From: an uncultured Methanosarcinales archaeon
GTDB taxonomy: Archaea; Nanobdellota; Nanobdellia; Woesearchaeales; CAZXRI01
Assembly: GCA_964642765.1 (NCBI GenBank)
Contig: CAZXRI010000002.1
Location: 1-24,208 of the forward strand
Direction: 5' to 3'
DNA: 24,208 bases
The notes beneath the pieces are model-generated. The model searched no databases, had not been told where the DNA came from, and was given only the letters and a program-made list of their open reading frames with translations. This document shows positions 1 to 24,208 of the stretch, piece after piece (positions within the stretch are counted from its first letter, which is position 1; every line of letters begins with the position of its first letter). Position numbers and translations under genes: made by a program.

Positions 1-475
1 ATGTTATGAATTTAGGGTCATTTAAGCTGTTCTCATTATTCACTTTATGATACGCTTTAATTGACACATCAGATAACATAGTTAAAGTATCATGAGAAAC
101 AACAATATCTAATTCCTTCAAAGATGCACACGCCACAATCAAAAAATCATTACGAACATCCTTAAAAGAAAGATTTCCGCCATATCCTCTGTAAGCATTA
201 TAATATTCTTCTGCAATGGTTTCTGTAACTTTACCTATTTTGATATTATGATTCTCCTTATAGATAAATTTGTCATATATTTGTAACAGTAATATTTTTG
301 CTGACCTATTGCCAAGCCTTATCCTTGTAGGCGTATCTCTTAATTCATCCCTGATAATAGGATTTCCATAGATTATTAATTCTTTCTTAGAGAACTGTTC
401 CTCTATTTTTTTTAAGGAGTTTATCTCTAAGATTAATTCTCCATATACACTTGTATCAAACATTACTCGTTTCAT
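1..475 (-). CDS. PIN-domain (VapC-like) protein, 3' end beyond window edge; paralog of 1447..1968
   Basis: Manual translation from ATG 475: MKRVMFDTSVYGELILE...IIYGNPIIRDELRD...NDFLIVACASLKELDIVVSHD..., open to base 1. It shares MKRV-DT, IIYGN-IIR-ELRD and NDFLIVACAS with the 1447..1968 protein. Absent from the ORF track, presumably because no stop lies in the window. Confidence 0.85.
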   Translation of the reverse strand, partial: MKRVMFDTSVYGELILEINSLKKIEEQFSKKELIIYGNPIIRDELRDTPTRIRLGNRSAKILLLQIYDKFIYKENHNIKIGKVTETIAEEYYNAYRGYGGNLSFKDVRNDFLIVACASLKELDIVVSHDTLTMLSDVSIKAYHKVNNENSLNDPKFIT

Positions 476-561
476 TTAACCACCACAAAACTATCCATAA
501 CCATAATTATCAAAAGCATCATCAAAATCCATTCAGTTGTCTCCTTATCCATCCTAATCAT
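472..561 (-). CDS. 29-aa leader ORF starting inside repeat R1 (MIRMDKETTEWILMMLLIIMVMDSFVVVK), stop overlaps the PIN start (ATGA)
   Basis: Manual translation. The start lies downstream of the repeat's AGGTGG SD and the stop is coupled to the next gene. No evidence of translation. Confidence 0.3.
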   Translation of the reverse strand: MIRMDKETTEWILMMLLIIMVMDSFVVVK

Positions 562-586
562 TCTCCACCTGCGAAATGTTTAAATA
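548..586 (-). repeat. Cassette repeat R1 (type A)
   Basis: + strand tccatcctaatcattctccacctgcgaaatgtttaaata; 37/39 identical to R3. Confidence 0.95.
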
Positions 587-632
587 GTTTTCATTAAATA
601 TAATATATTTATTAAATACACAAGAGGGAAAA

Positions 633-875
633 ATGTCAAAAAATGTAAATGTAACATTATCTGTACCAACAGAGCTAAAAAAAGGAATGGACTCCCTGCC
701 AGAAATAAATTGGTCTGAGGTAATGAGGCAGGTATTATCCGAGAAAGTACAAAGACTTGCATTATTGCGGAAGATAGACGAATCAACAGCTGGCTCAAAA
801 CTCGATGAGAAAGATATCGAAATAATCTCAGAGAAAATTAAAGAAGGAATAGCAAAAAGGCACGGGCTGAAATAG
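633..875 (+). CDS. Ribbon-helix-helix-type antitoxin (VapB-like)
   Basis: N-terminal NVTLSVPTELKKGM...INWSEVMRQ beta-helix-helix pattern, 80 aa, stop abuts the PIN start. Confidence 0.75.
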   Translation: MSKNVNVTLSVPTELKKGMDSLPEINWSEVMRQVLSEKVQRLALLRKIDESTAGSKLDEKDIEIISEKIKEGIAKRHGLK

Positions 876-1280
876 ATGAGATTAGTCATAGATGCAAATC
901 CTCTCATTGCAGGATTCTTGAGGGATTCAACTTCACGAAAAATAATCTTCTCAAATGAGATTATCCTTTTTTCCCCAGACTGGTTAAGAGATGAATTTGA
1001 TAGAAATGAAACTGAACTAATGAAAAGATTTCCTACCCCTGAAAAATTTTCAGAAACTAAATCCGCATTATTTAGATTTGTAAATATTATTCCGTCTACA
1101 GAATATTCCTCATGTCTTAAAGAAGCATTATCTCTTGTAAAACATGATAAAGATGCTCCGTATTTTGCTCTTGCGTTATATCTTGGAATCCCTATCTGGT
1201 CAGAGGAGAAATCATTTAAGTTACAGTCTAAAGTAATGATATACTCTACATCTGAATTGATAAGATTGCTTTCATTGTGA
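876..1280 (+). CDS. PIN-domain toxin (VapC-like)
   Basis: RLVIDAN, DEF, DKDAPYFALA, IWSEEK acidic PIN motifs; 134 aa; directly follows the RHH gene. Confidence 0.85.
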   Translation: MRLVIDANPLIAGFLRDSTSRKIIFSNEIILFSPDWLRDEFDRNETELMKRFPTPEKFSETKSALFRFVNIIPSTEYSSCLKEALSLVKHDKDAPYFALALYLGIPIWSEEKSFKLQSKVMIYSTSELIRLLSL

Positions 1281-1295
1281 TTTATTATTTTATTA

Positions 1296-1341
1296 TCCAT
1301 CCTCATCATCCACCTTCAAAACATTTAAATATAAAGCTTGC
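1296..1341 (-). repeat. Cassette repeat R2 (type B)
   Basis: ccatcctcatcatccaccttcaaaacatttaaatataaagcttgc (1297-1341) is identical over 45 nt to 3159-3203. Confidence 0.95.
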
Positions 1342-1353
1342 CTTATTGCAAAT

Positions 1354-1470
1354 ATGACACAAAATAAATCTGAAAACTTTGATAAACTCTGGGAAAGGAT
1401 TGAATCCATAAGGAAAGACCCAGAATCCATGAAAGCATTAGACGAATTAATCAAGATTCACACCTCTTAA
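1354..1470 (+). CDS. 38-aa small protein (MTQNKSENFDKLWERIESIRKDPESMKALDELIKIHTS), convergent with and overlapping the PIN gene 3' end
   Basis: Manual translation. TATAAA at 1330 lies 24 nt before the ATG, consistent with a leaderless archaeal promoter. Confidence 0.55.
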   Translation: MTQNKSENFDKLWERIESIRKDPESMKALDELIKIHTS

Positions 1471-1968
1471 CAATTTTTTAAATTTTTCAAATCTAATAAA
1501 CTCAGGCATTTTATAACGATAAAGCCCATTTACAGATTTATATGAATTAATTGAAATCTCAGAAAGCATGGTTTTTCTGTCTTCACTAACCACTAAATCA
1601 AGATTATTTACAGATGCACATGCCACAATCAAAAAATCATTCAGAATCTCATTTCTTGGAATCTTACCGCCCAAAGCCCTAAATGCAATGGAGTATTTAT
1701 CAGCAAGAAATTCAATATCAACATTCAGCATGTAATGATGCTTTCCTACTAATAAATCATATAGTGATAATAGTGTTATTCTTAGATTTTGAATATTCTC
1801 CCCTGAATAGTTTAGCTTATACTTAGGAATATCCCGCAGTTCTCTCCTTATGATATCATTACCGTAAATAATTAAATCTCCTGCAACAATTGACTTTTTT
1901 AAGCTATCCCTGTCTATCTCTTTCAAAACAAATTCATAAATATTTGTATCTAAAATTACTCTTTTCAT
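1447..1968 (-). CDS. PIN-domain protein
   Basis: VILDTNIY, RRELRD, NDFLIVACA, LVVSEDRK motifs; 173 aa. Confidence 0.85.
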   Translation of the reverse strand: MKRVILDTNIYEFVLKEIDRDSLKKSIVAGDLIIYGNDIIRRELRDIPKYKLNYSGENIQNLRITLLSLYDLLVGKHHYMLNVDIEFLADKYSIAFRALGGKIPRNEILNDFLIVACASVNNLDLVVSEDRKTMLSEISINSYKSVNGLYRYKMPEFIRFEKFKKLLRGVNLD

Positions 1969-1982
1969 ATTACTCCACTATC

Positions 1983-2032
1983 TCCATCCTAATCATCATC
2001 CACCTGCGAAATGTTTAAATATAAATGTTGCC
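1983..2032 (-). repeat. Cassette repeat R3 (type A), begins 9-aa leader MMIRMEIVE (1970..1999)
   Basis: tccatcctaatcatcatccacctgcgaaatgtttaaatataaatgttgcc; abuts the HEPN stop codon at 2033. Confidence 0.95.
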
Positions 2033-2509
2033 TCATTTTTGAATCACCGCATAAATATTCTTAAAAAACTTTTCAGCATTCCTTACAGATTCTTCTGACG
2101 GTTTTACATTTGCCTGAGGCAATCTATGATAAGTAAACTCTCCCCGCTTTTTCTTCTCCTGAGAGAATATCGCAAGCAACTCATCAGCCTTTACAATCAA
2201 AGACTTATAAATATTAAGAAGCTCATAATCCAGAATCCCAGTCTTTACAAGCCTTGCCTCAAACTCGTCTAATGTTTTCCTATGTTCATCAGGCGGATAA
2301 GTCTCAACTCCATGTTTAAGCAGAATAGACTTTGCACAATAAAAAATGCAATAATATGCATGAGAAATAACATGGGAATAAAATGTCATTTCCTTTGGAA
2401 TAAAAAGTTCCAGTTTAATTCTCTCCTCAGAAGATAGCATAAAACTTGCCTTAGCAAAAGTAATCTCATTCTCTGCCCTCTCAATATAAAGCTTAACCTT
2501 TGAATCCAT
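2033..2509 (-). CDS. HEPN-domain protein (partner of MNT)
   Basis: AYYCIFYCAKSIL, DEH and KRGEFTYH motifs; 158 aa; overlaps the upstream MNT gene by 17 nt. Confidence 0.85.
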   Translation of the reverse strand: MDSKVKLYIERAENEITFAKASFMLSSEERIKLELFIPKEMTFYSHVISHAYYCIFYCAKSILLKHGVETYPPDEHRKTLDEFEARLVKTGILDYELLNIYKSLIVKADELLAIFSQEKKKRGEFTYHRLPQANVKPSEESVRNAEKFFKNIYAVIQK

Positions 2510-3107
2510 GATAAACAGCCTCCTTTAAGACATTAAAATAAATCATATGATTAAAAGCCACGACGGAATTCCTGAATATCTGTTTTCCAAGATTTTCCTC
2601 TTTTGCAATCAACATCTCCTCGAACTCAGCAAGTGAAATATAATGGATATGCAAATCAGTCAATGATTTTAATTTTGCATTTTCAACAAGAGGCAGGAGT
2701 CTCTTTTTATCTGAATCTGTTCCGATCAAAAAGCAAATATCAATGTCAGAATCTGCTCTTTGCTTTCCTGATGCAAAAGAGCCAAAAAGTATTAAGCAAT
2801 AATTCTGGCAAAAGTTTAGCTTGTTTATTATTGCTTTGTCTATCTTTAAATTGTTATATCTAACAACATCTACATAAGATAAGTAATTTATTGTATCTAT
2901 CTCATCAAGATTGAGCTTATAAAAATTTACTCCGCCAATTGTTTTTTTGAGGATGATTTTTTTCTCATTTAGTACTTCCAAAAATCTAAACAACCATGCC
3001 CTTGACAAACCCCTGATTGATTTAGTTAGATAAGAAAGTGTAAACTCCTCGAGAATATTTCTTCTTAAAACTTCCATAATCCTTATATGTGTTTTTGTTA
3101 GTATCAT
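2493..3107 (-). CDS. Minimal nucleotidyltransferase with probable N-terminal HTH (MNT antitoxin)
   Basis: LFGSFASGKQRADSDIDI (GS-x10-DxD) motif; N-terminal helix-turn-helix-like segment. Confidence 0.9.
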   Translation of the reverse strand: MILTKTHIRIMEVLRRNILEEFTLSYLTKSIRGLSRAWLFRFLEVLNEKKIILKKTIGGVNFYKLNLDEIDTINYLSYVDVVRYNNLKIDKAIINKLNFCQNYCLILFGSFASGKQRADSDIDICFLIGTDSDKKRLLPLVENAKLKSLTDLHIHYISLAEFEEMLIAKEENLGKQIFRNSVVAFNHMIYFNVLKEAVYHGFKG

Positions 3108-3158
3108 TTTTGATATTGAATAGTATTTATCTTGATATTCTTTGGTTTTAGTAATTCA

Positions 3159-3203
3159 CCATCCTCATCATCCACCTTCAAAACATTTAAATATAAAGCT
3201 TGC
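3159..3203 (-). repeat. Cassette repeat R4 (type B), begins 7-aa leader MMRMVNY (3148..3171)
   Basis: 45/45 identity with R2. Confidence 0.95.
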
Positions 3204-3216
3204 TTAAATGGTAATT

Positions 3217-3369
3217 ATGCCTCAAAAAACAAAAGACATAAACGACATAAACCCTGCAGATTATAATGACCCTGTTGAGTTAGCCAGAGATATAAAAAAA
3301 TTAATGCACACAGATTTTCTGGAGCAATATTCAAGCCTCAAAAAATCCATGAAAGCTAAATCTCATTAG
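3217..3369 (+). CDS. 50-aa small protein (MPQKTKDINDINPADYNDPVELARDIKKLMHTDFLEQYSSLKKSMKAKSH), convergent with and overlapping the PIN gene 3' end
   Basis: Manual translation. TATAAA at 3192 lies 25 nt before this ATG, nearly the same spacing as for 1354..1470. An alternative in-frame ATG is at 3208. Confidence 0.55.
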   Translation: MPQKTKDINDINPADYNDPVELARDIKKLMHTDFLEQYSSLKKSMKAKSH

Positions 3370-3847
3370 GCGACATTATTCTTATCTCGGATAGTCCATT
3401 CCTCTTAAGCACCTCGTTAATTTTTTTCTCCATATTCTTCAAGTGTTTCCTGTTATATGAAATAACATAATCCAAATCCTGAATGCTAGCAATTAAAATT
3501 ATTAGTATGTCTTCCTCTTTTATTCCTTGTGATTTAAATTCTTCTTCTATCTCATCAAAAGAGATTTTCTTAATATTCAGTCCTGCAATAATCTCAATCT
3601 TATCAATAAATTTCGTTGTTGCGTCCTTATAAAAATCCAAAATTTTATCTCTTAATTCCCTGAATTTCCATTTTCGCAGCAATATCTCAAAATTGGATGG
3701 AGTAATAATTTCAAATTCTCCCTTATTTGCTCTCTCTATAAATGATAGGCAATATTCTTTGCGCAAATCATTAGATGGAAAATAGGCAACTGTAATTACA
3801 TCTAAATCAACCATGATTCTTTTTTTGTTATCTTTAATTTGCATCAT
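3356..3847 (-). CDS. PIN-like domain protein starting inside repeat R5
   Basis: RIMVDLDVI, EEDILIILIA, DYVISYNRKHL fit the PIN pattern; 163 aa. Confidence 0.7.
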   Translation of the reverse strand: MMQIKDNKKRIMVDLDVITVAYFPSNDLRKEYCLSFIERANKGEFEIITPSNFEILLRKWKFRELRDKILDFYKDATTKFIDKIEIIAGLNIKKISFDEIEEEFKSQGIKEEDILIILIASIQDLDYVISYNRKHLKNMEKKINEVLKRNGLSEIRIMSPNEI

Positions 3848-3868
3848 CCACCTGCGAAATGTTTAAAT
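3842..3868 (-). repeat. Cassette repeat R5 (type A)
   Basis: catcatccacctgcgaaatgtttaaat, 27/27 identical to the matching part of R3; lies 5 nt from the YhcG stop. Confidence 0.95.
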
Positions 3869-3873
3869 CTCAT

Positions 3874-4845
3874 TCACTTCAACCTTTTAATTATCTCTTT
3901 CTCATCTGGCAATTTAACCTTATAATCAGACACAAAAATCTCTTTCCTCAAATCACCAAGAGCATAACGGACAGTTTCCTCATCTTTTGATTTACATATA
4001 ATTAAACCTATTGGCAACTTCTGTCCCTTTAGCCATCTATTTTCTTTGTACCAATTCAAGTAAGAATACATCTGGCTTACATGAGAATGCTTAAAGGATT
4101 CAATCTTGACCTCAACCAGAACATAACACATTAATCCAGCATGAAACAACTCCAAATCAACCTTATCATAATCCCCAGAAATTAACACAGGAACCTCTCT
4201 TCTACCGACAAAAAAATCCTGTCCTAACTCTCTTATGAAATCTTCAAACTTATTCAACAATTCATCTTTCAAATCCTTTTCCTTGAAATTATTTCTCAAC
4301 TCCAAAAAATCAAAATTATAAGTGCTTTTGAACACATCCTGAGGCATTAATTGTGTCGCAATTGGCGACAATTTTATTATTTCCCCTTTCTTAAATTTCT
4401 TTGCTGCATTATTTCTTATTTGTTCTCTAAGCTGGTTCCTTCCAAAACTATTCTTAATGGAGAGCATCTCATAAATTTTTCTCTCTTCATTGCTCTCAAC
4501 AGCAAGCAACTCGATATAATGCGACCAGCTTAATTCTGTCGCAACCTGCGACAATATTGGATATGTCTTATAAAATTGCAGCATTCTATATAATAATCTC
4601 TCCTCAAACCCTAAATCATTAGACAATTTAACAATTAGCCTATTCCCATAATCAGCCCTTTCTTTAAATCTGAATTCTTCCCTCGCAATTCGCTCGCCTA
4701 TTTGCCAATAAGTTTGAACCCTTAAATTATCAACTGATTTATATGCCTGTAACTTTGCTTTTTCCAGAAGGAATTTAATCTCATTTAAGACGATATTGTA
4801 GTTATCTAATCCTTCCTTTTTAATTATTTCTTCCATCCTCATCAT
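3874..4845 (-). CDS. YhcG/DUF1016-family PD-(D/E)XK nuclease-like protein
   Basis: YWQIGERI, YG..LI.KLS.DL, LSWSHYIELL, FIRELGQDFFVGR, VDL...LVEVK, SQMYSY; 323 aa; starts within repeat R6. Confidence 0.9.
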   Translation of the reverse strand: MMRMEEIIKKEGLDNYNIVLNEIKFLLEKAKLQAYKSVDNLRVQTYWQIGERIAREEFRFKERADYGNRLIVKLSNDLGFEERLLYRMLQFYKTYPILSQVATELSWSHYIELLAVESNEERKIYEMLSIKNSFGRNQLREQIRNNAAKKFKKGEIIKLSPIATQLMPQDVFKSTYNFDFLELRNNFKEKDLKDELLNKFEDFIRELGQDFFVGRREVPVLISGDYDKVDLELFHAGLMCYVLVEVKIESFKHSHVSQMYSYLNWYKENRWLKGQKLPIGLIICKSKDEETVRYALGDLRKEIFVSDYKVKLPDEKEIIKRLK

Positions 4846-4858
4846 CCACCTGCGAAAT
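4832..4858 (-). repeat. Cassette repeat R6 (type A, truncated; array boundary)
   Basis: tccatcctcatcatccacctgcgaaat, then diverges; lacks the gtttaaat segment. Confidence 0.9.
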
Positions 4859-4867
4859 CTTCAACCA

Positions 4868-4960
4868 TCATTCTATTATCTCCAGTATTAAGCTGTCTTT
4901 CCCTCTTGGAAATCTTCTTGCGTGGTGTTCTTCGTCTGAGTTTAGGTCAAGCTTTTCCAT
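4868..4960 (-). CDS. 30-aa hypothetical ORF between the 1116-aa gene and the array
   Basis: MEKLDLNSDEEHHARRFPRGKDSLILEIIE with GAGGAC upstream of ATG 4960; the ORF track extends it to 5065. Confidence 0.3.
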   Translation of the reverse strand: MEKLDLNSDEEHHARRFPRGKDSLILEIIE

Positions 4961-4991
4961 TTTGTCCTCGGTATTTTTTTTGAATAACATT

Positions 4992-7900
4992 TTACGCTGT
5001 GCCTGCATTAGCTGCGGCTCCTGTATCTGCTGCCTGTGCATTACCCTGATTAGATTGCCCCGCACTTCCTGAATTATCAGATGGCTCTTTGTTGAGTATT
5101 TCGCAAAAATCAGGCTGTCCGTTTATTGTTGTGGATTTGGCTTTCAAGCTGTCCTTGACATTTACCCATGTATCAACTGTTTGTGCAAGTGTTTCAAGAG
5201 TAAGCATTGTGCTGTAAGGAATGCACGAGCCGTGCCATCTTACAGCTTGTGTCCCTAAAGAAGAATCTTTATCACAAACATCCCTAAATCCCTTTCTTCC
5301 AAGAACCCATACTGTTGCAAAAGGATTTTCAAATGCGTTTCCAAGAGCCTTAAATGGTTGTATCAGGATATCAGTTAATCCGCCAATTGTTGAGCCTGTA
5401 AAATATTTGCATTTATTCAAGCGGAATTCCCTGTCGCAATCTGTTTTTGTTTGCAATCCTGTTGGTATAACATCCCGATAGCAAACAGCTTTCTCGCATT
5501 TCATCTGACGGTAATTCTGGATATTGGCAGCCATTCCAGGCAAGCAAGCACATCCAATAGCAAATACCCAATTCTTTTTTGCAAATTCAAGGTTTGATTG
5601 CTGAAGTCCGGCTAATACTGTTCCTCGAGTAATTTTAACATCATTTCCATCAGCATCAGTTGTTGTTCCAAGAGATTTTCCAAGAATAGTATTTTCCCCA
5701 AGCTGCCCTCCTGCTCCAAGTAAAGTATCCCTATACAAATCACATAGAGGAGCCTTGCCCACACCAACTGTTTTGCCGAGAATCGGAATTTTTCCTTCCT
5801 TGCCTTGACATGATACAAATCCGCACATAGTATCAAAATAATTACTGATTTTTTCATAGCTGTTAGATGTTGTTTTAAATGCCTGAGTAAGAGAAGCCTC
5901 TCCACTTCCACAAAAGAAACCTGCTGCACCAGCTGAAGCATCATTGCAATCTGCAAAAATAGCTCCGACATAGGAGATTACATTTATTGTCGCTTTATAG
6001 CCTGACCTTGTCCTGCATATTCCTTGTGCAAGATTTGCAACCTTGTCAATCCCATTAGCAATCTTATCCAAGCCTCCATTCACATCATCCTTAATATTAT
6101 CAATCTCATCCTGAAGATTTTCTTCGTCTGTTGATTTATCCCATCTTACAAAAACATTTGCCCTGAGAAGCTGCTGCTCTGGTGTTTTATAGACAACATT
6201 TCCGCATTTAACATTATACTGGACAAAGCATGCGTTTGTTGCACCGATAGCAAGAGATTCTTTTCCTGCGATATTTTGTGGAGTAATATGGAATTGTGCA
6301 AACCCTGAATATGAATTGCCGTTCTGCGAGAAGAAAATCTCCTTGTTTGGAAATTCATCACATTTCAGGACTGGGTTTACAGCCTCTGCCCCTTCTGAAC
6401 ATTTTCCCAAGTCATTAAGCTGGAAATAAATCGGAACAGTGTAATCAACCTGAGCCATTGAAATAAAAATAGATGAGTCAATCGGTGTAATGTAATCCTC
6501 GAGGATAACCATCTCAAAAAGCTGTCCGTCTTTTGGCGAGTCTTTGGTCTGCTTGACAGAAACCTTTTCTTCTTTCTCAACTTTGTTGCCAGCACCATCT
6601 ATAAATGTGAATTTTATTTTTGCATTATCAATTACTCCTGTCCTGTCAATCTTTGGAGTTTCTGCTGTGCATAGCCAGATGTTTTCCTGCTCATCAAACT
6701 CACATGGTATCTCAATTTTATTCCCGCCAATTATCACAGACGAGAAATCAGCATAAGCAGAAAGGATATTTTTCTCTTCAAGAACAGCGCTTATCTGGAT
6801 AATGTCTCCTGTTTTCAGAACATCTCCTATTCCAGAATCACTTTTCCCGAGGATAGAAATATCGTCTTTAATCTCGGGCTTTGTCTTATCGAGGATAACA
6901 GCAAGCGTTACAGCATCCTTTACAGCATTTCCGAGAATATCCTTTGAATCAGTGCCGATGCTTGCCTCATAAGTATCCTCGAGGAGATCTCCTATGTCTG
7001 CATTATTCCACTTGCATGTGAATGTTTTATCACCTGTGCATTCGCTTGCTGAGATTGTTTTTGAGCCAATGTGTAAGATAATATCAGAAGGGCTTATTCC
7101 AGTTACATCCTCGATTGTTGCTGCCAGATTTACACTTGACGAAACATAAATATTCCCATCTGCCGATGGTGTTCCTGATTGGATGGATTTTATTACTGGA
7201 CCAGCATCATCCTTTCCAAGTGCAATGTCAATCTGCGAGTTTGCTGCATCAACAGCATTCCCAAATATATCCTTGACAGAGAGGAGAACTTTTTTTGTTC
7301 CTTCTGCCTGAGGCATTAAGTCAAATTCCCAAATTAAAGTCAGGATGTTTCCGTTTCTTGAATTTGTCGTCGGAGAAACCAATTTAAGCGAAGGATTCAC
7401 CTCTGATAAGTCTGCTGTTATGCTCTGCAAATCTATATCTGCTCCGTCTATTGAAACTGAAAATTTAGCAGGAACTAATTTTCCCGGGAGTATATTTGAA
7501 ATTACCTTATTATTCCTGTCAGTCAGCTTTGCAGTTTCCTTCTTGATTGCCGGAGGAGTTTTGTCAACAGTAAATGTTTTGCATACTTCAGACGAGGATT
7601 TTTCAAATTTATCCTTTGCTTTTGCACAAACAGTTATATCTCCTGTTTCTGCATGAGAATAAGAAACTGATTTTCCTGTTATCGCACAACTGCTGTCAGC
7701 AAGACATTCTTCATTGCATTCAGCTATCATTTTATTATCAGCAGATTTTCCGAGGAAGAATTGCACAAGCGTTGTGCCAGAGCAGGTATTTTTATCTCCG
7801 TTATAACCATAATCAGCAACATCAAAATTAAGATATACATTTCCATTCGGAGATATTTTTTTTCCTTCAAAATCAGTTATGCCACCTATTTCAAATAGCG

Positions 7901-8342
7901 TAATCTGAGGCGCACGGTTATCAACAGTAAGAGAAACATCTTTTCTGTCAACAACATAACCAGCATCATCAACAAGGAGAATTGAGAATTTAGGAGTCTT
8001 TGTCGAGAATCTTTTTTTGCCTGATTCAGGATATTTCAATGTGCATGTCTGCAAGTCTGTTCCAGAAACGCAGGCAAAGAATCCAGATGGGATTGATGCA
8101 GAATCGTATAATATAATATTCTTTGTCAAATCAGCATCTGTGTCAAGCTTTGCTGCTATCTCGAATGTAATCTGATCATTGTCGCTGATTAGGTTTTCAA
8201 ATCCATTTGAGCCAGTAACTTTCACGCTGCCTATCCTTCCTGTTGGGACAGCAGAAACAAATGATATTGACGAGAAAGAAGAAAGCAGCATGATAAATAC
8301 AAGGAAAACTCCTCTATATTTAGCAGGCATCTTTTTCATCAT
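4992..8342 (-). CDS. Large exported protein: signal peptide, Ig-like beta repeats, Cys-rich C-terminal region (1116 aa)
   Basis: N-terminal KYR + hydrophobic stretch + VSA; recurrent VDxTPP/D..GN motifs typical of Ig-like surface domains; many Cys. Confidence 0.85.
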   Translation of the reverse strand: MMKKMPAKYRGVFLVFIMLLSSFSSISFVSAVPTGRIGSVKVTGSNGFENLISDNDQITFEIAAKLDTDADLTKNIILYDSASIPSGFFACVSGTDLQTCTLKYPESGKKRFSTKTPKFSILLVDDAGYVVDRKDVSLTVDNRAPQITLFEIGGITDFEGKKISPNGNVYLNFDVADYGYNGDKNTCSGTTLVQFFLGKSADNKMIAECNEECLADSSCAITGKSVSYSHAETGDITVCAKAKDKFEKSSSEVCKTFTVDKTPPAIKKETAKLTDRNNKVISNILPGKLVPAKFSVSIDGADIDLQSITADLSEVNPSLKLVSPTTNSRNGNILTLIWEFDLMPQAEGTKKVLLSVKDIFGNAVDAANSQIDIALGKDDAGPVIKSIQSGTPSADGNIYVSSSVNLAATIEDVTGISPSDIILHIGSKTISASECTGDKTFTCKWNNADIGDLLEDTYEASIGTDSKDILGNAVKDAVTLAVILDKTKPEIKDDISILGKSDSGIGDVLKTGDIIQISAVLEEKNILSAYADFSSVIIGGNKIEIPCEFDEQENIWLCTAETPKIDRTGVIDNAKIKFTFIDGAGNKVEKEEKVSVKQTKDSPKDGQLFEMVILEDYITPIDSSIFISMAQVDYTVPIYFQLNDLGKCSEGAEAVNPVLKCDEFPNKEIFFSQNGNSYSGFAQFHITPQNIAGKESLAIGATNACFVQYNVKCGNVVYKTPEQQLLRANVFVRWDKSTDEENLQDEIDNIKDDVNGGLDKIANGIDKVANLAQGICRTRSGYKATINVISYVGAIFADCNDASAGAAGFFCGSGEASLTQAFKTTSNSYEKISNYFDTMCGFVSCQGKEGKIPILGKTVGVGKAPLCDLYRDTLLGAGGQLGENTILGKSLGTTTDADGNDVKITRGTVLAGLQQSNLEFAKKNWVFAIGCACLPGMAANIQNYRQMKCEKAVCYRDVIPTGLQTKTDCDREFRLNKCKYFTGSTIGGLTDILIQPFKALGNAFENPFATVWVLGRKGFRDVCDKDSSLGTQAVRWHGSCIPYSTMLTLETLAQTVDTWVNVKDSLKAKSTTINGQPDFCEILNKEPSDNSGSAGQSNQGNAQAADTGAAANAGTA

Positions 8343-8500
8343 ATATCCTTCAGCTCCCTCTGGATTACTTCTAAATCATAGAGCTTCTGCTCCATCAATT
8401 CACGGGCAAGCATGGATTTTTTCTTGCCCAATTTTTTTGAAACTCTCTCAAGAAGGTCATCAATTTCCTTGCTTACTGTTATTCTGATTTGGATGCTCAT
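8339..8500 (-). CDS. 53-aa ribbon-helix-helix (CopG-like) regulator, translationally coupled to the 1116-aa gene
   Basis: MSIQIRITVSKEIDDLLERVSKKLGKKKSMLARELMEQKLYDLEVIQRELKDI; GAGGT SD; TGA overlaps the next ATG (ATGA). Below the ORF-track size cutoff. Confidence 0.8.
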   Translation of the reverse strand: MSIQIRITVSKEIDDLLERVSKKLGKKKSMLARELMEQKLYDLEVIQRELKDI

Positions 8501-8540
8501 CAGGAAAACCTCTTTTGGTGTTTTTTATTTATGGCATAAG

Positions 8541-8555
8541 TATATAAACTTTTCT
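8541..8555 (-). promoter_or_regulatory. Archaeal BRE-TATA promoter for the RHH / 1116-aa operon
   Basis: Minus strand reads AGAAAAG-TTTATATA, ending 40 nt upstream of ATG 8500. Confidence 0.7.
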
Positions 8556-8559
8556 ATGA

Positions 8560-8890
8560 CTTGATTGTTAATTAGATAGACTTAATTAAGACTTTAGATA
8601 GCCTATTTAGTGTTAAAGTAAGTTATGGATATAGAGATAAACTAAGTTAGTCATTATTAGTCCTTAGAATATACTAAATTTAGTATTTATTAGGTATATT
8701 TTAAGTTAAAATCTTTTTCTGTCCCTTAGATTATTATTGAAAAGGCATTGTTTAGACTATAAAAAGCATATATTAATACTTAATTAGTACTTTAAAAATC
8801 TGTAATATATATAGTGGTAGATTTATACATTATTTAGACTAGATTATGCTTTTTGCATTTTATACTCACACACTGAAATAGAATTAGAAA
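8560..8890. other. Very AT-rich divergent intergenic region with 13 TTAG motifs on + strand and a 16-bp palindrome
   Basis: TTAG at 8572, 8594, 8607, 8647, 8657, 8664, 8680, 8690, 8726, 8752, 8784, 8834, 8884 versus 2 CTAA; ATACTAAATTTAGTAT at 8671-8686. Confidence 0.7.
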
Positions 8891-11479: not shown

Positions 11480-14400
11480 ATGTCCAAACAAAACAAGGCA
11501 AAAATGATTCCAGCAACAAAAATAATTCATGTAATCCTAATAGTTATCCTCATAGCGAACATAGTTCATGCTATCGACGATATTCGGATTGATATAGAAA
11601 TCCCTCAGACACACAATTCAGAAAAGCTTGATGTTTCAGGAACAACTGAAAAGTCTGCATCTGTTGTTGTGCTTGTAAATGGGATGAAACAGCAGGAAAT
11701 TTCACCTGAGAACAATCCAGACGGTAAATTCACACTAAACCTTATCCTTGCAAAAGACAGCACAAACAAAATAAAAATTACAGCAAGCAAAGAAGATAAA
11801 TCAGCAGAGAAAGAATTTGATGTAACAGTTGATACCAATTCTCCAACTCTTGTTATTGAGCCAATCAAGGATATACTTATTGAGAAAAACCTCGTCGTAA
11901 AAGGAAAAGTCAGCAAGGAAGTTACTGTTGATATTTTCCTCGGAAGAGGCAAGCTGGATAATGTCAAGCCTGCAAAAGTTTCAGGATTAAAAGTTGCTGA
12001 TTCAGAGAATAATTTAATGGACTTTGTTCACATTGAATGGAACAAGAACAGTGAAGATGACATAGACAAGTATATTATATATAGGGAAGATGTTGGAATT
12101 CTCGACACAAATCCGTCTGGAACTGTTTTTGTCAGGGACTTGAAAGTTAATTCAGACACAGAATATGTTTATCGCGTTGCTGCTCTTGATGCATCAGGAA
12201 ATGTTGGAGACAAGTCAGAGCCGCTGAAAATTAAGACTCTTGCAGGAGACAGGAAAAATATTCCAAAGCCAATTGGCCAGAAAGTATCCCAAGAGATTGA
12301 CAGGGCTGTGAAAAGCGTTAAGACAACCAATACTTTCGAGGAGGAAATTCCTCTTTCTTCAGACGGTGATTATCATATCACAATTATTGCAACAGACAAT
12401 GCAGGAAACAGGGCAATTTACAAAAAGAATTTTCTCCTTGACACAAAAGGGCCAAAGATAGAATCAATAACTCCGAGAAGCGGCTCATTTATTTATGAAT
12501 ATGCAGCAAACAGCGTCAAGATAGAAGGAGTTACAAGCCCGAATGTTGAAGTTAAGCTTTTCCTTGACAAAAATGCAGTCGAGAAATTACTTTCCACAAC
12601 ATTGACAGAGCAGCAGGCACTTTTGTATGACAAGGATGTTTACCAGAAACTAAAGGAATCCTATTCAACAAAATCCGACGATAAAGGTAGGTTTGTTTTC
12701 AACAAGGTAAATCTGCTGAATTATGTAAGCGCAAATTTTGCTCCAACTGAGGTTGATCCAAAGGATTTCAATAGAAACAATGATGATACGCAAGGCATTT
12801 CAAGGCAGAATTCTGTTGAGATTGTTATTTTGGCAGCAGATAAATTCGGCAGGTTTGACCAGAAAAGATTACATTACAGATTAGGAACATGCTGGTCAGG
12901 AAACCTTACATGGGATGTGCGTGTTCTCAGCGAATTCCAATCACCAACTTTCTTAAGCACAGAAAGGCTTGCTGAAGGAACAGAAACAATTTACTTTTAT
13001 CTTAATTTCAGCTATCTGGGAGAGTCTTCAGACGCTGGTGCAAGAATCCAAAGCCTGCAGCTCGCAAACGCATGCGATGACTTTGCCAAAGACAATCCGC
13101 GATACAACATAAGCTGCTCAATCATGAAAAATAACTGCGTTACAAAATCAAGCTCAAATAAAAGAACATGGTATGTTGCATGCCCTCTTGCTGGTGTTGA
13201 CGGAATGGACAGATGGCTGAAAGATGACTGGAAAAGCTTTGCAAAGGCTGTTCACAATGAAATGAGTTTCCCATTCAGGATAAGGATTGGATATACAGAA
13301 AGAAAGCAATCTCAGGATGCAAACGATAATACAATTGACTCAAGACAAGTCCAGACAACCTGCGACGAGGTTTCGTATGTTGTTGACAGCTCAAAGATTG
13401 ATCCAAGAAGTGTTCTGCCTGATTTCCTTCTCAGGGATTCAATCAAATGGCTCAACTCCTCGATAAAGGCAATTGACAAGGCACAGGGATATGTAAGGAC
13501 TGTCCTGAACTTCGTCGGAATAGGATGTGTTGGCTCTATATTATTCAAGTTCGGCACAACTGTTTGGAGAGAAACAACATGCAATCTCGAGGGAGTAAGA
13601 GATAGGGCTGATGCAACAATTCCAAAAAACTTGAAATGCCCTCTAACAAAAGAAGATAGAAACAAGCTTACAAATCAGGAGCTTCTTGAAAGATGTCCAA
13701 GCTGCTCAGCACAATGGGATTTTGAGTCAAAACTTTATGGTGTTTATCGAGGATTGTGCGACAGGGTTTTCTGCCACACTGCTCCTGCAAAATGGACAGA
13801 GAGCAAACCTGACGACGAATTAGTAAAAAAACAGTTTGAGATAAAAACACAATGCGGCGAAAAGGATGAAAGCCTGCAAGGACAGCCATTATTAGAGAGA
13901 AGCTGCTCAGCATGGCTCGACGAGGATTTAGACAGAGAAAAAATATCTGCACAAGGAGCAGGAGATACATGCTATCAGGCGCAGATAATCAGGGAAGATG
14001 ACGCAGCAAAATCAAAATATGGAATGGTTTTCATAAAATCAAGTGAGCAGGCATTCAGGGAATCTGGTGTTTACAAGTTCACAGCAGTTTCAAAAGTTTC
14101 AGAGAACCAAAAATCAGCCAAATCCTCAGTCGAGAAATACTATACAGATGACTTGTTTGTCAAGGAATTCAAAGGAAGGTTTATGACAGCGAGAACAGAC
14201 ATGTGCGCTGATGTGTGCAATAAAAGAGGATATACAAATTCCACATGCGGTGATTCTAATGATGCTGTCCAGCTTGAAAATCCGACTGTAGTAAGCAACA
14301 GGCAGGAAGCATATACTAAATTATTTGGAAATGGATTTAATTCTGCCGCAAAATACAAAACACTAAGAGTCGGCTATACAGCAGATTGCTTGTTTGGAAA

Positions 14401-23160: not shown

Positions 23161-24093
23161 ATGCCAGAAACAGAAAAAGCAAATTTTAAGCCAAGATTCG
23201 TCGAGAGATTTTCAAAGCTGACTGACTGGGAGCTTTTCAGGAAATATTCAACAACTTACCAGAAGCGTTCAATCAGGGTTAATACATTGAAGATTCCCGT
23301 CGGTGAATTGAAGGAAAGGCTTAAGGAAAACTGGACATTAACGCAAATACCATGGTGCAAAGAAGGCTTCTGGATTGAGCATTCACATACTGACAGAAGG
23401 GATGTTGGAAATCTTATTGAGCATTCTCTCGGGTATATTTACATTCAGGAAAGTGCATCAATGATTCCTCCGATTGTTCTCGAGCCAAAAGAAAATGAGT
23501 TTATCCTTGATATGTGTGCATCTCCAGGCTCAAAATCTTCCCAGATTGCCCAATACATGCAAAATACCGGAATCCTCGTCTCAAATGATTATAAGGGAGA
23601 CAGGCTGGCTGCGCTCGGGATTAATATGCAGAGAATGGGGATTACCAATAATCTTATTACATTAATGCAGGGAACACAGTTTAATGGATTTCAATTTGAC
23701 AAAATTCTTGTTGATGCTCCCTGCTCAGGAACAGGAACTATCAGGAAATCATTCAAGACAATAGAGATATGGAATCCGACGATGATTTCAAGGCTTGCTA
23801 TCCAGCAAAAGCGGCTGATTGAGGCAGGATTTAATAATCTCAGGAAAGGCGGAATAATGGTTTATTCGACATGCTCCTGCGAGCCTGAGGAAAATGAAGG
23901 CGTGATTGATTTTATCCTCGGGAAATACGATAACGCAGAGCTTCTGGATGTTGAGCTGCCAATGAAAAGAAGCAATCCTGTTTTGGAGTTTGATGGAACA
24001 GCATATAATCCATCTATAAAGAAATGCGTCAGGATTTGGCCTCAGGATAATAACACAGATGGATTTTTCATCGCCAAGATTAGAAAAAAATAA
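23161..24093 (+). CDS. NOL1/NOP2/Sun (RsmB/RsmF-like) RNA m5C methyltransferase
   Basis: YIQESASM, LDMCASPGSKS, LVDAPCSGTG, VYSTCS, DGFFIAKIRK; ATG 23161 preferred over TTG 23080. Confidence 0.95.
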   Translation: MPETEKANFKPRFVERFSKLTDWELFRKYSTTYQKRSIRVNTLKIPVGELKERLKENWTLTQIPWCKEGFWIEHSHTDRRDVGNLIEHSLGYIYIQESASMIPPIVLEPKENEFILDMCASPGSKSSQIAQYMQNTGILVSNDYKGDRLAALGINMQRMGITNNLITLMQGTQFNGFQFDKILVDAPCSGTGTIRKSFKTIEIWNPTMISRLAIQQKRLIEAGFNNLRKGGIMVYSTCSCEPEENEGVIDFILGKYDNAELLDVELPMKRSNPVLEFDGTAYNPSIKKCVRIWPQDNNTDGFFIAKIRKK

Positions 24094-24208
24094 TTAAGCG
24101 ATGAACAAATCTCAAGGAATGAAATGACAGAGGTTTTTCATCGCCAAGATTAGAAAAAATAATTAAGCGATGAACAAATCTCAAGGAATGAAATGACAGA
24201 GGTTTTTC
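24064..24208 (+). repeat. Tandem direct repeat, 70-nt and 69-nt units plus start of a third, running off the window edge
   Basis: TTTTTCATCGCCAAGATTAGAAAAAA(A)TAATTAAGCGATGAACAAATCTCAAGGAATGAAATGACAGAGG starting at 24064 and 24134; TTTTTC again at 24203. Confidence 0.9.

Follow-up and report, generated by a model that had tools for sequence, protein, structure and literature searches.

The window analysed here, the first 24.2 kb (24,208 nucleotides) of contig C2 in the 80%-complete, 1.35-Mb assembly (37.6% G+C) of a tiny groundwater archaeon, contains an array of unrelated defence-gene cassettes separated by a repeat of 35–40 nt. On balance we favor the view that this repeat is a dual-strand expression module, the cargo-strand half of which would act as a stop–restart coupler of translation. 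An earlier note on this DNA had described a portable translation-initiation module, in which a Shine–Dalgarno (SD) sequence and start codons give ribosome entry to any gene placed behind the site. That proposal was largely right, but a hand-over of ribosomes by reinitiation fits better than fresh ribosome entry. Two properties had been missed: the ATG cluster of the repeat doubles as stop codons in the other frames, fed by relay open reading frames (ORFs) from the preceding cassette, and half of the repeat is a strong promoter facing in the opposite direction.

Structure and conservation of the repeat

The window holds six copies (R6 to R1), all in the same orientation. Read on the minus strand, the order of elements is a TTTAAA box, eight bases that occur in two subtypes, the hexamer AGGTGG and an ATG cluster (ATGATGAGGATGG). 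Nearly all bases can be assigned to a TATA box, a B recognition element (BRE), an SD sequence or the start/stop cluster. R1 and R3 represent a long form with a 3-nt insert in the ATG cluster, R6 is without a TTTAAA box and R5 retains the first two ATGs only. The hexamer followed by the ATG cluster was found in all six copies, as the earlier note had stated, and the six peptides it had read from them (MMRMEE, MMQIK, MMRMVNY-stop, MMIRMEIVE-stop, MMRMDN and MIRMDK...-stop) are all correct. The six sites are copies of one sequence, and a feature present in every repeat counts as one observation. Anatomy, reading frames, spacing statistics, promoter scores and conservation were observed or computed directly. 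The individual copies are:

4833..4867, minus strand: R6, the first repeat; AGGTGG 4851..4846; ATG#1, #2 and #3 at 4845, 4842 and 4836; no TATA box
3837..3868, minus strand: R5; TTTAAA 3867..3862; AGGTGG 3853..3848; ATG#1 and #2 at 3847 and 3844
3159..3193, minus strand: R4; AGGTGG 3177..3172; no incoming relay ORF
1984..2021, minus strand: R3, long form; AGGTGG 2005..2000; ATGs at 1999, 1996 and 1987; third-frame TAG at 1991
1297..1331, minus strand: R2; AGGTGG 1315..1310; faces the inverted VapBC cassette
549..586, minus strand: R1, long form; AGGTGG 570..565; ATGs at 561 and 552

A 21-nt degenerate pattern of the repeat matches the window six times, with 0.07 matches expected from shuffled sequence, and a profile of the repeat core scores 31–38 bits on the six copies while the next best site in the 1.35-Mb assembly reaches 9.5 bits. 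The idea that the repeat might be a general promoter or SD motif of this genome was rejected, since in the assembly it is present only at this locus.

The complete array is found on an 89.7-kb scaffold of the same organism (L018), which encodes a YhcG protein identical to that of the window. Its eight repeats bound seven cassettes: YhcG; PIN_c with a small convergent ORF; MNT-HEPN; PIN_b with a small convergent ORF; an inverted VapBC pair; PIN_a with a small convergent ORF; and a second YhcG (YhcG2). The array is flanked by genes for surface proteins of 1116 aa and 1216 aa. Upstream of it lie a conserved 53-aa gene, then the 1116-aa giant gene and, directly after the latter, a conserved 40-aa ORF.

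One metagenome scan for the repeat returned this same locus twice, plus one other organism (L017), in which the flanking giant proteins share 57–60% amino acid identity with those of the window. L017 holds a single cassette, an inverted VapBC, bounded by a perfect copy of the repeat (Rb) and a decayed, terminal copy (Ra). Rb is identical to R3 at 37 of 38 positions, a conservation beyond chance when set against the 57–60% of the giant proteins and the 31% identity of the two VapC proteins. The first copy of the repeat deviates on its left side and the last copies on their right side. The exact degenerate pattern had no match in a species-level genome collection, and a search of 60 relatives and then of 400 genomes of the order recovered no array; it gave only single matches with two mismatches (22, versus 8 for the reversed control), which resemble ordinary SD contexts; two of them are in unpublished genomes (G244 and G207), and no conclusion here depends on these two.

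Stop codons, relay ORFs and the start of the cargo genes

The ATGATGA cluster provides the second frame with two TGA codons, both of which share bases with an ATG. In each of the six copies the frame of the ATGs stays open, a second-frame TGA overlaps ATG#1 or ATG#2, and a TAG or TAA of the third frame occurs within a few nucleotides of ATG#3; in the long form this TAG stands 1 nt ahead of ATG#3. Reading in frame 0 is halted by a TAA within the TATA box. Several ORFs, most of them short, lead into this cluster or out of it:

4842..4871, minus strand: relay micro-ORF of 9 codons, MMVEDFAGG-stop, whose ATG is joined to the end of the 40-aa ORF by an ATGA overlap and whose TGA overlaps ATG#1/#2 of YhcG
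3844..3873, minus strand: relay micro-ORF of 9 codons, MRFKHFAGG-stop, directly after the YhcG stop; its TGA overlaps ATG#1 of PIN_c
3171..3148, minus strand: R4 micro-ORF MMRMVNY-stop, followed by 40 nt to the MNT ATG at 3107
1989..2036, minus strand: relay micro-ORF of 15 codons, beginning in an ATGA overlap with the HEPN stop and ending in a TAG 1 nt before ATG#3 of R3
1999..1970, minus strand: R3 ORF MMIRMEIVE-stop, ending 1 nt before the PIN_b ATG at 1968
1970..1987, minus strand: second relay micro-ORF, MEIVE-stop, from ATG#3 of R3, with the same end 1 nt before the PIN_b ATG at 1968
554..1309, minus strand: ORF of 251 codons (MMRMDN) from ATG#1 of R2, antisense through VapB/VapC; its TAG lies 1 nt before ATG#3 of R1
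472..561, minus strand: R1 micro-ORF MIRMDK...-stop, whose stop overlaps the PIN_a ATG at 475 (ATGA)

The links from the 40-aa ORF to YhcG, from YhcG to PIN_c and from HEPN to PIN_b are each made by an ATGA overlap, by direct adjacency or by a 1-nt gap. When this strict rule is extended to same-strand gene pairs elsewhere in the genome that have gaps of 15–90 nt, no more than 11 of 219 (5%) prove fully chained, and chaining at three of four junctions against that 5% background has a P of roughly 5e-4. The fourth junction, from YhcG2 to the second giant gene (big2) of L018, comprises two ATGA-linked micro-ORFs and then a gap of 13 nt. A stop codon that overlaps a start codon or lies within 2 nt of it, as in termination–reinitiation coupling, is found at R6, R5, R3 and R1, at R0 and R-1 of L018 and at Ra of L017.

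Between R2 and PIN_a the relay takes an unusual form, as the 251-codon ORF ends before the third ATG of R1 and the micro-ORF from there overlaps the PIN_a ATG. An antisense frame through VapBC is open in both species (251 codons in the window, 246 in L017), although the two VapC proteins are only 31% identical, and each of these antisense ORFs either overlaps the next ATG at its end or stops 1 nt short of it. The 246-codon ORF of L017 is followed by an ATGA link, a 7-codon ORF, a 1-nt gap and the giant gene. Resampling with the codon usage of the genome gives P = 0.025 for the open frame of the window and 0.009 for that of L017; an open antisense frame of equal length occurs in 1–3 of about 800–900 genomic windows.

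Three cargo genes of the full array, YhcG, PIN_c and YhcG2, start within the repeat itself:

3874..4845, minus strand: YhcG/DUF1016 nuclease, opening in R6 (MMRMEE); homologs align from ATG#3 (4836)
3356..3847, minus strand: PIN_c, fused to the ATGs of R5 (MMQIK); N-terminus 5 residues longer than in its sole relative

The comparison with homologs outside arrays that the earlier note had proposed came out in its favor. None of the 60 closest YhcG homologs has MMRM at its N-terminus, and their alignment starts at the third ATG of the repeat, at which YhcG2 also begins; gene callers likewise place the starts of YhcG and YhcG2 at ATG#3. PIN_c has a single cluster of relatives with 42% identity, which starts 5 residues later and has no MM; the relative is not part of an array but of a 2-oxoacid dehydrogenase operon (L057, 5001–5620). 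Since the homologs of YhcG and PIN_c outside arrays start later and without these residues, the MMR or MM residues of the two proteins do derive from the repeat, as had been predicted. PIN_b and PIN_a are reached via micro-ORFs that end 1 nt before the cargo ATG or overlap it. The alternative of N-terminal fusion or leader micro-ORF offered by the earlier note is thus borne out for YhcG, YhcG2 and PIN_c on the one hand and for PIN_b and PIN_a on the other. It holds less well in that PIN_a and PIN_b have SD sequences of their own, a GGTGG 9 nt upstream of the PIN_a ATG at 475 (-9) and a GGAG at -8 for PIN_b, both well placed, and in that R2 and the L017 copy Rb have an inverted cassette ahead and no cargo, yet are perfectly conserved.

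The position of the hexamer also bears on how the cargo is started. Both GGTG and GGAG/GAGG are positionally enriched upstream of start codons genome-wide, and AGGTGG fits that class; the 16S rRNA, which would give the anti-SD sequence, was not found in the 80%-complete assembly. Among 804 long ORFs the start of GGTG peaks at -11 to -9 from the start codon (13, 17 and 18 counts over a background of ~1), and the same window applies to operon-internal genes and to 113 gene pairs that are tightly coupled. For the three ATGs of the repeat the corresponding positions of GGTG are -5, -8 and -14, with -17 instead of -14 in the long form, and none of these spacings falls within the window that the organism prefers; -8 and -14 belong to the tails of the genome distribution, whereas -5 and -17 are near background. 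The distance from the hexamer to a later ATG is indeed 9 nt for R2, R4 and R6 and 12 nt for R3, as had been noted, and it is also 12 nt for R1, which had been passed over; the spacing that the earlier note had called usable is marginal at best. AGGTGG appears SD-like without being positioned as a site of de novo initiation.

Putative promoters on both strands

The promoter profile was derived from 151 promoters of this genome chosen for a TTTAWA at 28–32 nt before the ATG, and its BRE reads (A/C)AAAA at -7..-3. The plus-strand BRE/TATA of the repeat scores 13.5–14.7 bits, among the top 5–25% of 142 promoter-positioned sites, and the full reading in this reverse direction reaches the 53rd–85th percentile of real leaderless promoters. 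On this strand the repeat both matches the genome profile and has a start codon at leaderless distance, as an archaeal BRE/TATA promoter would. The two repeat subtypes differ at four positions, and among the eight positions of the BRE region these four carry the least information, an outcome with a chance of 1 in 70. R6 is the exception, with a promoter score below 0 in both orientations. Within positions 1–8600 of the window, the TATA boxes of the five other repeats are the only strong plus-strand promoter sites, and one strong cargo-strand site with a normal spacer is found, at the head of the operon:

3179..3193, plus strand: reverse BRE and TATA of R4; TATA start 3186, 31 nt before the ATG (3217) of the convergent ORF 3217–3369
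1317..1331, plus strand: reverse BRE and TATA of R2; TATA start 1324, 30 nt before the ATG of the small ORF 1354–1470
start 579, plus strand: BRE/TATA of R1, preceding VapBC (633–1280)
8541..8556, minus strand: BRE/TATA at the operon head, 14.1 bits; TATA start 8548, 48 nt before the ATG (8500) of the 53-aa gene

VapBC behind R1 has a leader and its own SD. In L018 a third small convergent ORF has its ATG at +31 from the TATA start of R0.

As the sole strong cargo-strand promoter heads the operon, the cargo genes are most likely read from one long transcript. The arrangement corresponds, as far as sequence evidence goes, to that of integrons, where one upstream promoter serves promoterless cassettes.

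A model for the junctions and its alternatives

In the model that we propose, the repeat would be the junction module of a cassette array lodged inside an operon of giant surface-protein genes. Its cargo strand would form a frame-independent termination–reinitiation coupler on a polycistronic mRNA from the operon-head promoter. Ribosomes would finish the previous cassette and then a short relay ORF beginning on or beside its stop codon, or, at the inverted VapBC, would translate the 251-codon antisense frame as a relay. They would stop on the TGA or TAG inside the ATG cluster (ATGATGA with an optional TAG) and restart on the overlapping ATG, with AGGTGG just upstream aiding the retention of the small subunit. 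The product of restart would be either the cargo with 0–3 extra residues (YhcG twice, and PIN_c) or a further micro-ORF ending at the cargo's own start (PIN_b, PIN_a). On the opposite strand, the consensus BRE/TATA promoter would drive the small convergent ORFs and the inverted VapBC. The polycistronic forward mRNA, the translation of the relay ORFs and reinitiation are all three inferred from the sequence.

Several observations weigh against this model. With five strong reverse promoters, polymerases would travel counter to the long forward transcript proposed here. The relay is interrupted at R4, where nothing bridges PIN_c to MNT, and after the stops of PIN_b and PIN_a forward ORFs resume only 17 and 10 nt later. 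With its own well-spaced SD, each of PIN_a and PIN_b could be started de novo and the relay would be unnecessary; and, compared with the 113 tightly coupled pairs, GGTG at -5 and -8 from ATG#1 and ATG#2 is at the limit of the observed range or beyond it. The junctions share some flank homology and are not fully independent. When synonymous codons are permuted within the gene, the open antisense frame has a P of only ~0.1 per species. On the cargo strand, the PIN_c stop is followed, ahead of R4, by a T4 and T6 run (3225–3245, minus strand) that might act as an archaeal terminator; it is located at the sole junction where the relay is broken.

The conservation of the repeat might instead have another cause, its main role being that of a recombination or attachment core for cassette insertion, with the start, stop and SD-like letters as unused by-products. 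The orientation of the repeat is constant whatever that of the cargo, the cargo genes are unrelated, and the same chromosomal site holds seven cassettes here and one in L017. The deviation of the first copy on the left and of the last copies on the right, and the identity of Rb and R3 at 37 of 38 positions across species, including in a copy without cargo, point the same way. We nevertheless regard this as unlikely. No recombinase is encoded within 21 kb (~10 kb on either side of the array in the 89.7-kb scaffold), which includes any integron integrase, and the three tyrosine-recombinase (PF00589) matches of the 80%-complete assembly are all on other contigs, C230 and C20. The repeats have no hairpin potential: single-stranded DNA folds of 91-nt windows at the six repeats gave z-scores of -0.74 to +1.99 versus shuffles, and an attC-like folded site was rejected. 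Moreover, the copies vary at positions that are uninformative for the promoter and not in the spacer, as known core sites do, and nearly every base is assignable to TATA, BRE, SD or the start/stop cluster. A role as recombination joint is compatible with the coupler, the two not being mutually exclusive, and is kept here as a rival for the cause of conservation. Of the PF00589 matches (C230 = L060, C20 = L061), two lie side by side on a 1.8-kb contig, and none is linked to the array in available assemblies.

Taken literally, the proposal of the earlier note is that of a free-standing ribosome binding site, with AGGTGG recruiting ribosomes de novo, independently of upstream translation, and one of the ATGs being used. 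This we consider improbable. GGTG-type motifs are indeed the SD of this genome, where 37% of operon-internal genes have an SD 4-mer at -18..-5; a few real starts, those of 7 among 804 ORFs over a background of ~1, do have GGTG at -14; gene callers choose ATG#3 for both YhcG genes; and the lack of a TATA box in R6 means that YhcG must be translated from a longer mRNA. Yet no ATG sits at the preferred -11 to -9, ATG#3 of the long form is at -17, near background, and Ra of L017 has lost AGGTGG though a real gene follows, while the cargo-less Rb retains it. Relay ORFs at the previous stops, overlapping stop codons and the open antisense frame would be left unexplained. The other possibility, that of a forward promoter giving leaderless transcripts from ATG#2 or ATG#3 with AGGTGG outside the mRNA, is in our opinion highly improbable and was rejected as the principal explanation. 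In its favor, the TTTAAA box starts 29 nt before ATG#3 in the short form and 32 nt before it in the long form, within the leaderless window of -32 to -28. However, the cargo-strand BRE is poor (8–10 bits, except in R1), and relative to 142 real leaderless-type promoters the G-rich spacer, at -6.7 to -8.3, ranks below the 1st percentile and the full score below the 1st–5th percentile; R6 is without a TATA box and the ATGs of R5 are at -20 and -23.

As to how such an arrangement arose, we can offer a tentative scenario, one that we would not put forward as the probable course of events. The cassettes may have colonised the surface-protein operon, and selection against polarity, which here means the loss of the downstream giant gene when translation lapses, may have forced continuous translation and thereby produced a portable, frame-resetting stop–restart module at each junction and relay ORFs at cassette ends, and may have kept an antisense frame of 250 codons open in two species. 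In that case the array would be a natural read-out of transcription–translation coupling in DPANN archaea and a ready-made coupling part.

Sister arrays and neighboring sequences

The closest non-identical YhcG genes (79% and 72% identity) occupy the same chromosomal site in other organisms, where YhcG follows a conserved 53/54-aa gene and a giant surface protein. In these sister loci the junction repeat is a module of 80–140 nt encoding a 42–56-aa, signal-peptide-like leader ORF that copies the signal-peptide end (N-terminus) of the next giant protein. In L024, nine consecutive ORFs run from giant gene 1 through three cassettes to giant gene 2 with all links at -1 or +4 (ATGA overlaps or 1-nt gaps), and at least five more genomes of the order have YhcG within chains of this kind. 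The sister arrays (L024, L021, L028, L042, L050, L054) are thus like that of the window in chromosomal position, in the types of cargo (YhcG, MNT, PIN) and in their chains of coupled ORFs, which are unbroken there; they differ in that the junctions consist of 80–140 nt with a leader ORF instead of a 35–40-nt repeat. Because the sister arrays chain their ORFs, nine in a row in L024, a leader ORF that hands ribosomes to the cargo appears to be a general design of these arrays, and the repeat of the window would be a minimal version of the sister junction. A profile search found no significant sequence similarity between the window repeat and the sister junctions. One L024 copy looked like the core of the window repeat at the 3′ tail of its leader ORF by eye; as the profile search gave no match, no such relation is claimed.

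Some features of the sister locus L024 (7730–11420) are worth recording. The C-terminal codons of its third YhcG resemble those of the first giant protein, the leader ORFs of 44–45 aa copy the N-terminus of the second, and the giant-gene junction has apparently been duplicated at each insertion.

Two conserved genes precede the array of the window:

8339–8500, minus strand: 53-aa gene at the operon head, ATG at 8500; no Pfam match
4868..4990, minus strand: conserved 40-residue ORF, starting 1 nt past the stop of the 1116-aa gene and leading into the array

With the gene that comes first in the sister loci L021 and L024, the 53-aa gene shares 72–79% identity, while the giant proteins behind it are only 21–29% identical to those of L021 and L024. 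The L017 homolog of the 40-residue ORF (11643–11762, minus strand) also starts 1 nt past the stop of the first giant protein. A Pfam search of the 53-aa and 40-aa ORFs and of two small convergent ORFs gave no match.

In L057, the relative of PIN_c sits between genes for E1-alpha and a lipoate ligase. A convergent 41-aa ORF is found there with a BRE/TATA 30 nt before its ATG, and GGTG directly after it, 13 nt before the start of the next gene; this layout, with the BRE/TATA of a convergent ORF and then GGTG, matches that of the window repeat. A metagenome contig of the window locus (L015) is without 11 nt at window positions 4152–4162 inside YhcG, which means that part of the population has a frameshifted YhcG; a 237-aa product is on record. 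At the end of the window, positions 24064–24208 contain two exact copies of a unit of ~70 nt (period 69–70 nt).

Implications and comparison with known systems

If the model is correct, it would explain how an array of selfish or defence cassettes could grow inside an operon while the gene beyond it escapes silencing, and would extend the attI1 leader-ORF principle from a single site in bacterial integrons to every junction of an archaeal array that has neither attC sites nor a nearby integrase. It would also make available a short natural element (~20 nt) able to reset whatever frame comes in and to restart translation, which could serve as a polycistronic expression part in archaea. Archaeal operons show polarity, which has been attributed to FttA (PMC12548453, PMC11616081), and the locus could provide a system for asking whether polarity of this type shapes genome architecture.

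Integron cassette arrays have been reported in Archaea too (PMC9668308), and integron cassettes further down an array depend for their expression on the translation of those before them (PMC11511950). The array described here resembles them in its unrelated, mostly promoterless cassettes rich in toxin–antitoxin and nuclease genes, in its single upstream promoter, in the inverted toxin–antitoxin cassette with a promoter of its own and in the expectation that downstream expression depends on upstream translation. In contrast to integrons, the repeats do not fold into an attC hairpin, no IntI gene is nearby, and the array stands between two genes of an operon and not beside an integrase.

The comparison with the attI1 leader ORF that the earlier note had drawn is an apt one. 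The ORFs concerned are ORF-11, ORF-17 and ORF-18 of the class 1 integron attI1 site (Hanau-Bercot 2002). In class 1 integrons, cassettes that have no start region of their own obtain one from these ORFs and are translationally coupled to them (PMC8876359). Both systems place a short ORF with its own SD and ATG in the array junction, ending at or near the start of the inserted gene and, in the window presumably as in integrons, boosting it by coupling; both have N-terminal fusions in some cassettes and transcription from one upstream promoter. The window differs in that the signal is present at every junction and not at the first site only, in the stops of other frames that overlap the ATGs of a module itself fed by relay ORFs, in the absence of attI/attC architecture, in its archaeal host and in the promoter for the other strand within the same 35–40 nt. 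What appears to be new is a coupler that recurs at every junction, resets the frame and shares its letters with an opposing promoter, with no attC and no nearby integrase.

Termination–reinitiation at ATGA and TGATG overlaps works in archaea, as established in Haloferax, with a contribution of the SD that depends on the gene (Huber et al. 2019, PMC6728339). Such coupling is known from bacteria as well (review PMC12548453). At the junctions of the window, stop and start are arranged in the same ways (ATGA, TGATG and 1-nt gaps), and the upstream ORF likewise contains an SD near its 3′ terminus. The known cases, however, involve real gene pairs, often encoding subunits of one complex, whereas the upstream partners here would be relay ORFs of 5–15 codons or an antisense frame, with no likely protein function, and the coupler would be a repeated, portable sequence.

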